Shown in pieces: positions 30,856 through 34,039 of a stretch of 64,000 nt of DNA. Below the pieces are notes generated by a model. The model had not been told where the DNA came from and did no database searches. It saw nothing but the letters and a program-made list of their open reading frames with translations. The stretch lies in NCBI GenBank assembly GCA_041904995.1, contig JAYRMB010000003.1, positions 86,447 through 150,446 on the forward strand, given 5' to 3'. The position numbers and the translations under genes are program-made. Source of the DNA: Azonexus sp. (lineage in GTDB: Bacteria; Pseudomonadota; Gammaproteobacteria; Burkholderiales; Rhodocyclaceae). How positions within the stretch are numbered: the stretch's first letter is position 1; every line of letters begins with the position of its first letter.

Positions 30856-30929
30856 GCGGGCGTCGTATAATGGTAATACCTCAGCTTCCCAAGCTGATGC
30901 CGTGGGTTCGATTCCCATCGCCCGCTCCA
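30856..30929 (+). tRNA. tRNA-Gly (CCC)
   Basis: Cloverleaf: GCGGGCG/CGCCCGC acceptor stem, anticodon arm TCAGC-TTCCCAA-GCTGA, GGTTCGATTC, 3' CCA. Confidence 0.97.
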
Positions 30930-30958
30930 CATCGAATTCAGGCAGGTCGTTGATCTGC
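30924..30958 (+). repeat. att-like direct repeat, copy 1 (tRNA 3' end plus trailer)
   Basis: 33/35 identical to 33304-33338. Confidence 0.85.
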
Positions 30959-30964
30959 AAAAGA

Positions 30965-30999
30965 AAAAGCCAACCGATTCTGGTTGGCTTTTTCTTTTT
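30965..30999 (+). terminator. Intrinsic terminator after the tRNA (bidirectional-type)
   Basis: AAAAGCCAACC-loop-GGTTGGCTTTT followed by a T-run. Confidence 0.8.
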
Positions 31000-31043
31000 A
31001 ACCTTTGATCTATTGAATTGCGCAATCGCTATTGCTGACCCAA

Positions 31044-31673
31044 TTAGCTAGCCTGTTGTTCAATTATCGGCGTAAGTTTAGTGACAAATGTCTTTTCAAA
31101 TTCCCTAAAACTGGCCAAAAGACGAAGAGGGGAAAAATCTTCGATGAGTTCTGCAACCCTGTGCCTACGCTGATCTACTCGGAATTTAGTAAGGCGACGG
31201 CCAGATAACTCTGATGCAACTCTAAGCGCATTGAATAACATTTCCTTGGGGTCCGGGATACTTTCAATGCGACTAATTTCAGGAAGATTCAAGGGGCTTT
31301 CCCCATTTGGGTTATCAGCCGCGGTCCGTATAGCTGCTTCACTACATAGCAACCATGATTCGAGCATCCGAACGGGAATCGCTGGTACGATGGGTACGTT
31401 AATTCCGGTGGAGGCATTAGCAATTTCATCTAGACGTCTATTGGGTGCTTCACGCTCTGCGTCACGATGAACAACCATAACATCACACGGGTAGCAATGA
31501 AACGCAACTCCAATTCTTGATCCAAGGCCATCTCGATGAGGTGGTAGATTTTTCGCAAACTCGACTCGAAACGATGCATTTGGGAATCTGATGGACATTA
31601 TCCAGTGAATTAACGGCACTAAACATGCATCAGAAGACCCATCACCAACTAAGGTGAGTTTCAAGAAATTCAT
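31044..31673 (-). CDS. DUF4276-like / TOPRIM-like protein
   Basis: LVGDGSSD, VVHRDAE, PVRMLESWLL, DPKE; directly downstream of the ATPase. Family call is from motif recall. Confidence 0.65.
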   Translation of the reverse strand: MNFLKLTLVGDGSSDACLVPLIHWIMSIRFPNASFRVEFAKNLPPHRDGLGSRIGVAFHCYPCDVMVVHRDAEREAPNRRLDEIANASTGINVPIVPAIPVRMLESWLLCSEAAIRTAADNPNGESPLNLPEISRIESIPDPKEMLFNALRVASELSGRRLTKFRVDQRRHRVAELIEDFSPLRLLASFREFEKTFVTKLTPIIEQQAS

Positions 31674-31681
31674 TTACTCGG

Positions 31682-33091
31682 TCACTCACTAAATAGCGAC
31701 AGTTGGCCACGAACAAAGTCATGAACAGTTGTTTTTTCCGGGTTTGATACCAGAAAACTATCTTTTTTGTCGTCGTCACTTAAATAGCTAAGTAGCGTAC
31801 CCAACGGTACGGTAGGAATTTTGGCTCCCTCAGAAACACGCCACGTAGCCTCAATTGGAGCGAATATAGTAGTTGATACGCCGCCTGTCTTGATTGGCAG
31901 CGAGACCAATAAATCGTCTTTGCAAAGTTTTTGAACTACAAGTGGGGAGTGGGTGTTTATTATTATCTGGCGCAGCGGATTATCTGGCCCGACGGCTAAG
32001 TCGGGATTAGACGCGATATCTCCAAGGAGTTCCATCATCGCTCTAACGCGGGATGGATGGATTCCGTTCTCTGGTTCCTCTAGGCAGATGAGGCCCCCGG
32101 ATGAAGCATCGGCACTTATAATTGCTAGAGCAAGAAAGCGTAGCGTCCCATCCGATAAACTTCTTGCTGTGTGACTGCTGCCGTCCCGCTGCGTTACAAC
32201 CAATGTCTTTAATCTGCGACCCTCATCAATATCAACTTCTACCGTACGTACTTCGGGAAGTAGATCACTGAGTCTATTTGCAACCTCCGAGTATTTAGCC
32301 AAACGTGCCAAGGTCGCTGGCATATGCGCACCTTCAGATGACACCCTGCTCTCATCTGAAAAATCATCGGGCAAACGCAATTTAGATGGTTCTAGCTGGA
32401 GTAGCCTCCAGGACTGCATTTCGCGGCGAGCAGCAAGCGCTGTTGGCTTGTCATCTGTGTTAATTGTGCTGAGTATCGTTCTAGGAGAGTTGGGGGCTGG
32501 TATATCTAAAGGGCGTCCCTGATGGCCATCCTGTCTTAAACGAATAACTGGTACTCCACCATTTATTTCTGTAGAAATGAAATCTGCTCTGCGGGCACCA
32601 CCAATTACTGAGTTCCAAAACTCAGTGCTAGTTTTAAAACCAAGACGCTTCCGAGATTCAGTTTTTAGGACATAAGTAAGCGATTCATGAATGAGTTCGA
32701 TGCGTTCAGGAGTTTGTCCTAAAGATCGAACGTATCTAAGCGTGACCTTATACCTAAGATGGGTCGCGGAAGGTTGAGCTTCTCTACCAAAGTCATCTAG
32801 TACTACCTTTTGAACTAGAAACTCTGCCTCTAGGTCAATGTCGTGAATGTCGCCATTAGGAAGAGCCGTGAATAGAGATTTCAAATCTGTGGCTCTTCGG
32901 CCAGAGTTATCGCGCACGCGAGATGCGGCCTCGACGATTGAATAATCAGCCAAGTCCCGCAAAAACATAATTGCATCAAATAGATTCGATTTTCCAGATG
33001 CATTTGTACCAGCAACACAGGTAAATGGGCCGAACGCGATCTCGCAATCGAATAAATTCTTGAAACCCTTGATTTTTAGTCTAGTAAGCAT
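31682..33091 (-). CDS. ABC-type AAA_21/AAA_15 ATPase
   Basis: MLTRLKIKGFKN, GTNASGKSNLFDA, LSDGTLRFLAL, LEEPENGIHP, NTHSP; no TM segments. Confidence 0.9.
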   Translation of the reverse strand: MLTRLKIKGFKNLFDCEIAFGPFTCVAGTNASGKSNLFDAIMFLRDLADYSIVEAASRVRDNSGRRATDLKSLFTALPNGDIHDIDLEAEFLVQKVVLDDFGREAQPSATHLRYKVTLRYVRSLGQTPERIELIHESLTYVLKTESRKRLGFKTSTEFWNSVIGGARRADFISTEINGGVPVIRLRQDGHQGRPLDIPAPNSPRTILSTINTDDKPTALAARREMQSWRLLQLEPSKLRLPDDFSDESRVSSEGAHMPATLARLAKYSEVANRLSDLLPEVRTVEVDIDEGRRLKTLVVTQRDGSSHTARSLSDGTLRFLALAIISADASSGGLICLEEPENGIHPSRVRAMMELLGDIASNPDLAVGPDNPLRQIIINTHSPLVVQKLCKDDLLVSLPIKTGGVSTTIFAPIEATWRVSEGAKIPTVPLGTLLSYLSDDDKKDSFLVSNPEKTTVHDFVRGQLSLFSE

Positions 33092-33303
33092 TGGCCGAAT
33101 TTTCCCAAGGTATCAGCTGTATTTGATCAAGTTCGCCCGCAATGATCCCGAAAAATGCTAAGCGAATTTTCTCACAATACGACGGATCAAAGTTGCTACT
33201 CTCGTATGAACAAGTTCTTAGGCAATCATATCCGGCACTATTCGCAGACGTTAGCGACAAACTATATTTCTTATAGATGGTGAAGAGTATTGAGTGCAGC
33301 GCT

Positions 33304-33338
33304 GCTCCAAATCGAATTAAGGCAGGTCGTTGATCTGC
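33304..33338 (+). repeat. att-like direct repeat, copy 2
   Basis: GCTCCAAATCGAATTAAGGCAGGTCGTTGATCTGC. Confidence 0.85.
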
Positions 33339-33344
33339 CGCGCC

Positions 33345-33373
33345 AAAGCCAACTGAACCCGGTTGGCTTTTTT
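33345..33373 (+). terminator. Terminator hairpin related to the one at 30965
   Basis: AAAGCCAAC-loop-GTTGGCTTT followed by T residues. Confidence 0.7.
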
Positions 33374-33421
33374 GTTGTCTGCTCGGTAGTGTTCACTTGT
33401 CTGTCGTCCAGCCGAGCCATC

Positions 33422-34039
33422 ATGTTTGCCATCCATAGTCTTTCCGGTTTCAGTCTGCGTGCGCCCTTGGAGCAGTTGGCGAAGAGTGCCGAGGTGCGCG
33501 CCATTCGACGGGATGGCGTGGAGTACGAACCGACGCTGGTTGGTGGGGATGATGGGGTCGCGCCGTCGCCGACGGCGGCGCAGGCTTATCGGGCCATTCT
33601 GCCCAAGGCGCTGGAGCGCGGGCCGGTGAAGCATGCCTGGCAGGTGATGAACAAGCAGGTGATCAGGGTACGGCTGGAGGATTCGGTCGAGCTGGCTTGG
33701 CGGGTGCTGGTCAAGTCGCGGGTGCGTCAGGCGGTGGTGGTCAACGATGAGGGCACCATCGTTGGCCTGGTCTCGGAGCGGGATCTGCTCACTTCGGTGA
33801 ATCTGGAGGATGGGGTTCTGCGCGATGTGCTGGGGCGGCGGGTGGCGGATGTGATGCAGACGCCCATCGTCAGTGCCGACCCGGTGACCGATATCCGGCG
33901 CATTGCGCAGGCCATGGTGGAATACGGCCTGTCCGGGGTGCCCATCGTCGAGGAGAGCGGGCGGGCCGTCGGCTTCGTGTCGCGTGGCGACATTCTGCGC
34001 TCGGTGGTCAATGACCCGCCCTTGAGCCTTTGGGTCTGA
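33422..34039 (+). CDS. CBS-domain pair protein
   Basis: Two CBS repeats (VGLVSERDLL; GFVSRGDIL); start set at MFAIHS. Confidence 0.85.
   Translation: MFAIHSLSGFSLRAPLEQLAKSAEVRAIRRDGVEYEPTLVGGDDGVAPSPTAAQAYRAILPKALERGPVKHAWQVMNKQVIRVRLEDSVELAWRVLVKSRVRQAVVVNDEGTIVGLVSERDLLTSVNLEDGVLRDVLGRRVADVMQTPIVSADPVTDIRRIAQAMVEYGLSGVPIVEESGRAVGFVSRGDILRSVVNDPPLSLWV

Follow-up and report, generated by a model that had tools for sequence, protein, structure and literature searches.

A Stand-Alone Copy of the Candidate Defense Module HEC-01 on a Small Strain-Variable Islet beside tRNA-Gly(CCC) in Azonexus sp.

Results

Two Genes Lie Alone between Direct Repeats of a tRNA Trailer

The window analyzed here, i.e., the whole stretch of DNA under study, comprises 64,000 nucleotides of an Azonexus sp. 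contig (JAYRMB010000003.1). The features of interest, numbered from the first nucleotide of the window, are as follows:

30856..30929, plus strand: tRNA-Gly(CCC) gene (ARAGORN; Rfam tRNA model, 62.9 bits)
30924..30993, plus strand: left direct repeat, made up of the last 6 nt of the tRNA, the trailer and the terminator (repeats D1, D2)
30959..30998, no strand assigned: perfect palindromic hairpin with 17-nt arms, with A and T runs alongside (inverted repeat I2)
31044..31673, minus strand: gene for a small Toprim-like (DUF4276-related) putative nuclease, HEC-01B-type (209-aa ORF)
31682..33091, minus strand: ABC ATPase gene, HEC-01A-type (469-aa ORF)
33092..33303, minus strand: non-coding leader, the probable promoter region of the operon (sequence and alignment with relatives)
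33304..33372, plus strand: right direct repeat, with two blocks that match the left copy at 94% and 86% identity; native flank comes next

The initial annotation had described an AT-rich operon of two genes, and both minus-strand ORFs were found exactly at the coordinates that it gave. The ATPase gene comes first and the gene for the small protein (termed the effector below) second, and they are separated by 8 nt (TGA CCGAGTAA ATG). The GC content was 0.436–0.506 across 31000–33499, compared with 0.618–0.674 in both flanks. The further description of the pair as alone in a tRNA islet also held, i.e., these are the only two genes between the direct repeats, and the flanks are ordinary high-GC genes (encoding MutY, a flavin reductase, a CBS-domain protein, a PAS-GGDEF-EAL protein and HD-GYP proteins). 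The islet contains no integrase or other mobility gene and no methyltransferase or other partner gene, and no helicase gene was found in either the islet or the window.

Exact metatranscriptome contigs mapped to the islet, one of them crossing the junction between the ATPase and effector genes. The operon promoter probably lies within the leader (33092..33303), where we have placed it by inference rather than by locating it: a simple sigma-70 scan upstream of the ATPase gene gave no promoter on the operon strand, and the approximately 100 nt closest to the ATPase ATG were similar to the same region in three relatives (L095, L096 and L006). The hairpin at 30959..30998 is likely to be a bidirectional terminator, serving the tRNA on the plus strand and the operon on the minus strand, and a similar hairpin is found 3′ of the effector gene in L095 and L096. 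An Rfam search returned the tRNA and a sub-threshold hairpin match, and nothing further.

Occurrence of the Islet Varies between Strains

The islet is 2.4 kb in length and is bounded by a repeat of roughly 70 bp of the tRNA trailer, the left copy matching the trailers of tRNA-Gly in two related genomes at 91.5%–94.6% identity. It is strain-variable. Other wastewater samples contained a population that shares the flanks at about 99% identity but almost entirely lacks the islet; in run X6, flanks of at least 99% identity were present at 40–60× and the islet at no more than 3.5×. In a run almost devoid of the islet, a contig at flank depth started inside the right repeat and continued into the right flank. 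No single contig captured the exact empty-site junction of the islet-less strains, the evidence for an empty site being one pattern scan of genome contigs together with read layouts. The pair was also absent from close relatives, and relatives bear other cargo at the same tRNA, i.e., the site is a cargo hotspot.

The many contigs of about 2.4 kb were considered as possible circular elements; this was rejected, as they had no terminal overlap, and one of them (L001) is the islet cut at the repeats. Adjacency to a tRNA gene as a trait of the whole family was likewise rejected, with any tRNA occurring in the flanks of only 3 of 80 loci.

The First Gene Encodes an Intact ABC ATPase of the HEC-01A Type

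The ATPase matched the Pfam families AAA_21 (9.2e-27) and AAA_15 (2.6e-19). It also matched the PADLOC HEC-01A model PDLC04184 (5.9e-100, 333 bits), with residues 1–392 aligned to positions 1–397 of the 464 in the model. All of the ABC ATPase motifs are intact in the window protein and invariant across 28 homologues, i.e., Walker A (G28–S35, with K34), Q187, the signature LSDGT (312–316), Walker B (EEPE, 338–341) and the H-loop (H381).

Other models matched less well or over part of the protein. The score against the NCBIfam MAD3 equivalog NF047739 was 142.2 bits and did not reach the cut-off of 420, and the match to the PADLOC mad3 model (5.4e-24) was far weaker than that to HEC-01A. AriA models covered just the C-terminal part (1.2e-27, residues 304–386), and the PADLOC PtuA model only the N-terminal P-loop region. 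The N terminus also gave weak matches to RecF, SMC and SbcC models, that to recF (9.4e-8) being confined to the Walker A region. The AlphaFold2 model (pLDDT 86.7) had its best PDB matches in PtuA, SMC heads, Rad50 and OLD (E from 1e-12 to 1e-10). ATPases of the solitary sub-clade, of which this 469-residue protein is a member, carry a large, conserved, β-rich insert.

The Second Gene Encodes a Putative Nuclease Related to DUF4276

Residues 1–200 of the effector aligned with positions 1–209 of the 217 in the PADLOC HEC-01B model PDLC04210 (1.6e-15). Six more HEC-01B models matched more weakly, and no other PADLOC model did so at E ≤ 0.1. The window protein itself did not reach the gathering threshold of Pfam DUF4276 (PF14103; 14.2 bits, E = 0.054, threshold 30.2 bits). 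However, because 30 of its 41 aligned relatives matched DUF4276 at E ≤ 0.01 (best 1.2e-7), the effector family as a whole is a divergent branch of DUF4276. There was no NCBIfam family match at E ≤ 0.1, and searches of Pfam and PADLOC yielded no match to a DUF4435 or AriB model and none to an HNH model.

The acidic motifs read in the initial annotation are DGSSD (residues 11–15) and HRDAE (residues 69–73), of which D11, G12, D15, H69, R70, D71 and E73 are invariant in the 41 sequences. The other invariant residues in this alignment are R80, E105, W107 and K143. The AlphaFold2 model (pLDDT 96.7) has a β1-α1-β2-α2-β3-α3-β4 core (strand 4–9, helix 13–29, strand 35–39, helix 50–60, strand 65–69, helix 77–87, strand 95–98) with a Toprim-type arrangement of acidic residues, i.e., D11 after β1 and D71-A-E73 after β3.

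Membership of the Toprim superfamily was sought separately by fold searching and was not confirmed in this way. Foldseek gave no match in the PDB at E ≤ 1e-3, to Toprim or any other fold, the top entries being the ExoVII catalytic domain (best E = 0.018), lumazine synthases and CheY-like folds. Nothing significant was found in BFVD, where the highest full-length TM-score was 0.39, for an RloB-like protein. A profile search of solved structures gave just a marginal match to YacP/NYN (E = 0.14).

The Pairing Is Conserved and Both Genes Are under Purifying Selection

An ATPase homologue lay directly before the effector gene in every one of the 49 metagenome loci whose upstream sequence was long enough to show it. 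Five other solitary copies, with saturated synonymous sites, showed both genes to be under strong purifying selection. For the ATPase, pN was 0.04–0.06 and pS about 0.7; for the effector, pN was 0.12–0.16 and pS 0.7–0.8. By this measure the ATPase is the more conserved partner.

A conserved third gene was looked for and rejected: the neighbors of the relatives are heterogeneous, and no partner gene recurred among 138 neighboring ORFs of 30 sub-clade loci. Some relatives adjoin Wadjet, RM, Zorya, Dpd, HipA or AbiEii genes, and many lie among housekeeping genes with no defense neighbor. None was found in GenBank phages or IMG/VR viral contigs, and relatives occurred on only 2 of 72,556 plasmids, both of them very large replicons.

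Discussion

The Pair Belongs to a Catalogued Candidate Family

The initial annotation proposed a candidate anti-phage system in the broad group that includes PARIS, Septu and AbiL/RloAB, and the architecture, i.e., an AAA_15/21 ATPase with a Toprim-like, DUF4276-type partner, agrees with this. Its suggestion that this was a related but new system did not survive, as the pair matches the PADLOC HEC-01 A and B models over almost their full length. HEC-01 (Hma-embedded candidate 01), an ABC ATPase with a TOPRIM protein, was first found inside Hma systems (Payne et al., 2024, bioRxiv 10.1101/2024.01.29.577857). Pairs of AAA15/21 and DUF4276 proteins are already present in the phylogeny of the PARIS paper, and DUF4276, of which MAD4 is a homologue, has been assigned to the Toprim superfamily. 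For MAD3-MAD4 itself, both structures and biochemistry are by now available. Because HEC-01, these AAA15/21-DUF4276 pairs and MAD3-MAD4 have all been described, a further undescribed system is not supported. The annotation had itself conceded that the novelty would go if a validated system were matched, and that is largely the outcome. Judged by its model matches, the locus is a stand-alone copy of the catalogued candidate module HEC-01, related to MAD3-MAD4.

A Proposed Mechanism

The homologues characterized best are MAD3-MAD4 from the MADS system of P. aeruginosa, which form a 2:2 heterotetramer with ATPase activity and Mg-dependent DNA cleavage that both nicks and cleaves DNA (Zhang et al., NAR 2026, PMC13662399). 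MAD3 and MAD4 are toxic only when co-expressed, and they constitute one of two required modules in the eight-gene MADS operon (Zhang et al., NAR 2026, PMC13662399). In the same study, the MAD4 pocket was assigned to D12, D55, D81, E83, E119, E121 and K164, and the Walker A lysine of MAD3 to K34 (PMC13662399). By analogy, the mechanism of MAD3-MAD4 may carry over to the window pair, although across a large distance, since the ATPase scores 142 bits against the MAD3 cut-off of 420.

We think it likely, with good but not overwhelming confidence, that the pair is a stand-alone module of the HEC-01 type in which an ATPase gates a Toprim-like nuclease, its role most likely being anti-phage. Its ABC ATPase, which resembles SMC, Rad50 and PtuA, would be transcribed together with, and tightly coupled to, a small metal-dependent nuclease that is Toprim-like and related to DUF4276. 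By homology with MAD3-MAD4, the two proteins would form a hetero-oligomer, probably 2:2, within which the ATPase dimer may stabilize and gate the nuclease. The acidic pocket of D11, D15, D71, E73 and E105, together with K143, is predicted by the same analogy to bind Mg2+ and cut nucleic acid. The target could be DNA, as with MAD3-MAD4, or alternatively RNA or tRNA, as with PARIS. Defense would most likely be triggered by an infection cue, perhaps sensed by the large insert of the ATPase, and the module appears to travel on the integrase-less 2.4-kb islet at the trailer of tRNA-Gly(CCC).

More speculatively, the solitary sub-clade, with its insert-bearing ATPase and its DGSSD...HRDAE effector, may need nothing beyond these two genes for immunity and may carry a sensor of its own, perhaps spreading as an integrase-less passenger flanked by att-like sites; we consider this a real possibility, but rather doubtful. 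Such a passenger would be a cis-mobilizable element of the CIME type, making use of integrases specific for tRNA-Gly, or of homologous recombination at the conserved trailer. Spread of this kind would explain why the same cassette is found behind the same trailer in lineages where its synonymous divergence is saturated.

Alternative Explanations

The pair might instead be the orphaned effector module of a larger methylation-based system (MADS, Hma, BREX or type I R-M), now a decaying passenger that is defenseless by itself. The discovery of HEC-01 within Hma would fit this, as would the requirement for a second module in MADS and the lack of a methyltransferase or other partner in the islet; moreover, the discoverers of HEC-01 assayed a single example in E. 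coli and saw no protection against any phage (Payne et al., 2024, 10.1101/2024.01.29.577857). Yet in another study a HEC-01 pair from a cold-seep metagenome, on its own, conferred protection on E. coli B against one or more of T4, T5 and T7. Decay is also at odds with two intact genes whose catalytic motifs are all invariant, and with the strong purifying selection acting on five further solitary copies, whose synonymous sites are saturated. The 138 neighboring ORFs of the 30 sub-clade loci offer no recurring partner. We regard this explanation as unlikely. Slightly less probable still is that the pair serves mainly as a selfish toxin-regulator (addiction) cassette, stabilizing the islet or excluding competing mobile elements at the tRNA site, and not as a phage defense. 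The toxicity of MAD3 plus MAD4 speaks for it, but that toxicity requires both proteins, unlike the logic of toxin plus antidote. A tiny, self-contained unit that occurs in many unrelated contexts, at a cargo hotspot, and is kept without an integrase could be of this kind; however, the ATPase is the more conserved partner, which would be unexpected of a labile antidote but fits a sensor or motor, and the related two-gene ATPase-nuclease systems PARIS, Septu and Gabija are phage defenses.

A housekeeping role in DNA repair, with the pair acting analogously to RecF (an ABC ATPase) and RecR (a Toprim protein), seems very improbable. Its base composition marks the pair as foreign, close relatives and strains at least 99% identical lack it, and it is patchy in distribution and found in varied genomic contexts. 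The ATPase fold does resemble SMC and Rad50 heads, but the weak N-terminal matches to RecF, SMC and SbcC are limited to the P-loop region and fall far below the family cut-offs.

Significance

With this locus, a contested candidate defense family gains a further natural copy that is solitary and evidently under selection. Phage tests of HEC-01 have so far given one negative and one positive result, and the only biochemistry of the family is that of a distant homologue embedded in MADS. That solitary copies are under strong purifying selection argues that the pair works by itself. The locus is also a small, clean example of a defense cassette at a tRNA-side cargo hotspot, and its presence and absence inside one wastewater population could provide a natural test bed for the movement of integrase-less defense islets. 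The picture held by the field is not changed by this locus.

Comparison with Known Systems

The window pair has the same two components as HEC-01 in the same order, i.e., the ABC ATPase gene precedes that of a small TOPRIM-like protein, and the predicted metal-binding acidic site is conserved in its effector. Within HEC-01 it corresponds to one pair of sub-models (PDLC04184 and PDLC04210). It differs in lying alone on a 2.4-kb tRNA-side islet rather than within Hma or another multi-gene system.

With MAD3-MAD4 it shares the division into an ABC ATPase and a separate DUF4276-type, Toprim-like nuclease, a Walker A lysine at K34 in both ATPases, and the same structural neighbors of the ATPase (SMC, Rad50 and PtuA). 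Both effectors appear to have the acidic pattern D...DxE with a later E and K (D12, D81, E83 and K164 in MAD4; D11, D71, E73 and K143 here), and the invariant D11, D15, D71, E73, E105 and K143 occur at positions similar to the MAD4 pocket, a correspondence of position rather than of structural superposition or direct alignment with MAD4. In contrast to MADS, the window ATPase is not a MAD3 equivalog and the effector matched no NCBIfam family at E ≤ 0.1, and of the mad1-mad8 operon the other six genes, and the methyltransferase, are absent from the islet.

PARIS (AriA-AriB) is likewise a two-gene system, its AAA_15/21 ABC ATPase, the likely sensor and scaffold, being encoded separately from a Toprim nuclease. 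However, AriB belongs to DUF4435, whereas the window effector is of the DUF4276 type, and PARIS is often carried by phages and satellites, whereas the window family was not found in the phage and viral collections searched. PARIS cleaves tRNA; by analogy, the window pair might possibly do so. In Septu (PtuA-PtuB), PtuB is an HNH nuclease, in contrast to the Toprim-like partner here, although PtuA chains are the best structural matches of the ATPase model. OLD is also among those matches, but OLD and GajA each carry their Toprim domain on the same polypeptide as the ATPase, whereas the window pair consists of two separate ORFs, and Gabija adds a UvrD-type helicase (GajB) of which the window holds no counterpart. 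What the window pair would have in common with Septu and with OLD/Gabija is their logic, i.e., an ATPase that gates a nuclease.

A Low-GC tRNA Islet Carries a HEC-01 Gene Pair

The two minus-strand ORFs that the initial annotation had proposed as an anti-phage system were recovered with exactly the same boundaries. The effector start codon follows the ATPase stop codon after 8 nt (TGA CCGAGTAA ATG). The features of the locus are as follows:

30856-30929, tRNA-Gly(CCC)
30924-30993, left copy of a direct repeat of ~70 bp, made up of the final 6 nt of the tRNA plus the trailer with its terminator hairpin
31044..31673, minus strand, effector gene, 209-aa ORF
31682..33091, minus strand, ATPase gene, 469-aa ORF
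33304-33372, right copy of the repeat (~70 bp)

GC content is 0.44-0.51 between 31000 and 33499 and 0.62-0.67 in both flanks. The low-GC segment adjoins tRNA-Gly(CCC), and the description of the pair as standing alone in a tRNA islet proved correct, because its neighbors are ordinary high-GC genes, i.e., those for MutY, a flavin reductase, a CBS-domain protein, a PAS-GGDEF-EAL protein and HD-GYP proteins. A 59-aa ORF overlapping the ATPase start (33081-33260, minus strand) matched no known family and is likely to be spurious.

In Pfam the ATPase matched AAA_21 (9.2e-27) and AAA_15 (2.6e-19), while the effector matched DUF4276 at 0.054, which is below threshold. In PADLOC the ATPase matched HEC-01A model PDLC04184 over residues 1-392 (5.9e-100) and the effector, encoded by the adjacent gene, matched HEC-01B model PDLC04210 over residues 1-200 (1.6e-15); the next matches were several more HEC-01A and HEC-01B models. 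The AriA, PtuA, GajA, Old and AbiLi models of PADLOC matched the ATPase in its P-loop or C-terminal ABC parts only. The NCBIfam MAD3 equivalog matched it end to end but reached just 142 bits where the cut-off is 420, and the effector had no family matches in NCBIfam. Judged by sequence, the pair belongs to HEC-01, and the PADLOC picture is unambiguous.

The proposed architecture, an AAA_15/21 ATPase with a Toprim-like partner, is upheld, but the idea of a separate, undescribed system is not supported, both proteins matching HEC-01. The pair is a further copy of an already catalogued kind. HEC-01, found embedded in Hma systems, has been described as pairing a TOPRIM-domain protein with an ABC ATPase; in the same study it protected against none of the phages tried (Payne et al., bioRxiv 10.1101/2024.01.29.577857). 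In other work, a HEC-01 of cold-seep metagenomic origin gave E. coli B protection from one or more of the phages T4, T5 and T7 (PMC12881386). AAA15/21 + DUF4276 pairs are already included in the tree of the PARIS paper (PMC11464382).

Conserved Residues and Predicted Structures of the Two Proteins

The effector family comprised 495 word-indexed relatives. When 1.84 billion representatives were searched exhaustively with a profile, 2489 clusters passed E <= 1e-3 and 874 passed E <= 1e-30. Across 41 aligned members, D11, G12, D15, H69, R70, D71, E73, R80, E105, W107 and K143 were invariant, and the motifs picked out by eye are real (DGSSD, residues 11-15; HRDAE, residues 69-73). DUF4276 was matched by 30 of the 41 aligned members (best 1.2e-7), and the family is therefore a divergent DUF4276 branch. 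AlphaFold2 modeled the effector with very high confidence (pLDDT 96.7) as a b1-a1-b2-a2-b3-a3-b4 core with a helical domain after it; strand 1 leads to D11 and strand 3 to D71-A-E73, which is the Toprim arrangement. Because Foldseek gave no significant match to this model among solved and viral predicted structures, the putative Toprim assignment is based on the topology, on where the motifs lie and on the literature on DUF4276 and MAD4, in which DUF4276 is placed in the Toprim superfamily and MAD4 is given as a homolog (PMC12065111).

The ABC motifs of the ATPase, i.e., Walker A GxxGxGKS (K34), Q187, LSDGT, Walker B EEPE and H381, were all invariant in 28 homologs. Its model (pLDDT 86.7) matched PtuA of Septu and retron complexes, SMC heads, Rad50 and OLD nuclease (E 1e-12 to 1e-10), the same structural neighbors as those reported for MAD3. 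Between Walker A and the signature motif (residues ~60-300) lies a large, well-conserved beta-rich insert with many invariant positions, e.g., PTxLAARREMQxW at ~216-228; the insert might be a sensor or a surface for interactions. Identity among close relatives was 87-90% for the ATPase and 73-80% for the effector.

A Putative ATPase-Gated Nuclease

The only biochemistry on ATPase-nuclease pairs of this kind concerns MAD3-MAD4 of the P. aeruginosa MADS, which forms a stable 2:2 heterotetramer (PMC13662399). MAD3 by itself has no ATPase activity and MAD4 by itself is insoluble, whereas the complex hydrolyzes ATP, binds dsDNA and nicks and linearizes plasmid in a Mg2+-dependent manner; co-expression of the two is toxic, and expression of either singly is not (PMC13662399). 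Invariant residues of our effector appear to occupy positions corresponding to the MAD4 pocket (D12, D55, D81, E83, E119, E121 and K164; PMC13662399), and MAD3 and our ATPase share K34 as their Walker A lysine. From that biochemistry and these correspondences we infer, by carrying the mechanism over a large sequence distance, that the pair would be an assembly-dependent, ATPase-gated, metal-dependent nuclease. It would probably act as a phage-triggered effector, its possible substrates being DNA, which MAD3-MAD4 cleaves, or tRNA, which PARIS cleaves.

The Pair Is Conserved in Varied Neighborhoods

A metagenome scan with the effector profile yielded 80 loci. In all 49 that had at least 1300 nt of upstream sequence, an ATPase homolog lay directly upstream on the same strand; on shorter contigs its C-terminal end was visible upstream of the effector. 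Compared with five close relatives, the ATPase showed 0.04-0.06 non-synonymous differences per site and the effector 0.12-0.16. Synonymous sites were saturated (0.70-0.83); both genes have therefore been kept functional over long divergence, in solitary contexts.

Neighborhoods among relatives were heterogeneous, many consisting of housekeeping genes, and contained no third conserved gene. Interspersed with these were genes for Wadjet, type IIG and type III R-M, ZorD, DpdE, SoFic, PIN, Fic and nucleotidyltransferase proteins, and a second HEC-01 pair; one close relative has a NERD-UvrD helicase on one side and HipA and AbiEii genes on the other. The family was very rare on plasmids, and searches of phage genomes and viral contigs yielded no member.

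A UvrD-type helicase lay just upstream on the same strand in 2 of 5 close relatives examined, a layout that recalls split Gabija and was absent among 138 neighbor ORFs of more distant relatives. Helicases in relatives' contigs were:

L002, 4706-6436, NERD+UvrD helicase upstream of the pair
L089, 3909-5570, and L090, 116-1759, UvrD_C_2 helicase, then GGACT protein, upstream of the pair

The Islet Is a Strain-Variable Element at a Cargo Hotspot

Two related betaproteobacterial MAGs (L007; L008, 1-2860) carry tRNA-Gly(CCC) and its trailer without the pair. In one, the trailer is followed directly by a GFA-family gene; in the other come a NotI-like restriction enzyme and C5 methylase, then a 46-nt tRNA 3' half plus trailer. 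In this betaproteobacterial group, the 3' flank of this tRNA is a hotspot for cargo. In public run X5, a 1339-nt contig (110x) follows the tRNA trailer to 30993 and then departs from our islet, which suggests that a co-occurring relative has other cargo at this site.

Islet and flank depths were compared from contig layouts of public runs. They were equal in 2024 activated-sludge runs. In a wastewater run from 2018, the islet stood at 3.5x at most beside flanks of at least 99% identity at 40-60x; in a second run from 2018, it stood at 3-5x beside flanks of ~97% identity at ~280x. These contrasts, with the varied cargo, thus mark the islet as an accessory, strain-variable element.

In the Logan contig L095 (1-8842), a cassette 78.8% nt-identical to ours is followed, after the effector, by a similar hairpin and trailer, a 17-nt tRNA 3' remnant and a 6.4-kb island (HTH protein, resolvase, NYN protein, DUF6538/phage integrase), beyond which the contig ends with a full tRNA-Gly. 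The arrangement resembles tandem accretion in which the HEC-01 cassette is a passenger that has no integrase. In L006, from a close relative, a different direct repeat flanks the cassette (1-60 and 2320-2384), composed of a gene's 3' end (ending ...RKLLG*) and CGGTCAACCGGAAAAAA; insertion of this cassette between repeats is therefore not confined to the tRNA site. Our islet resembles an integrase-less, att-flanked (CIME-type) passenger, a route of movement that we infer; no empty-site junction was captured within one contig of the public-run layouts.

Three sludge metatranscriptome runs each held one contig identical to the islet (30950-31202, 31610-31860 and 31946-32084), one of them spanning the ATPase/effector junction. 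These contigs hint at transcription, with DNA carry-over possible.

Comparison with Known ATPase-Nuclease Systems

The locus differs from MADS in that the MAD3 match was sub-threshold, the effector matched HEC-01B models only and the other mad genes are absent. It has neither the DUF4435 of PARIS nor the HNH partner of Septu and, unlike OLD/Gabija, its Toprim domain is unfused and a helicase is absent. The pair would work like the ATPase-nuclease systems MADS, PARIS, Septu and OLD/Gabija, yet it belongs to HEC-01.
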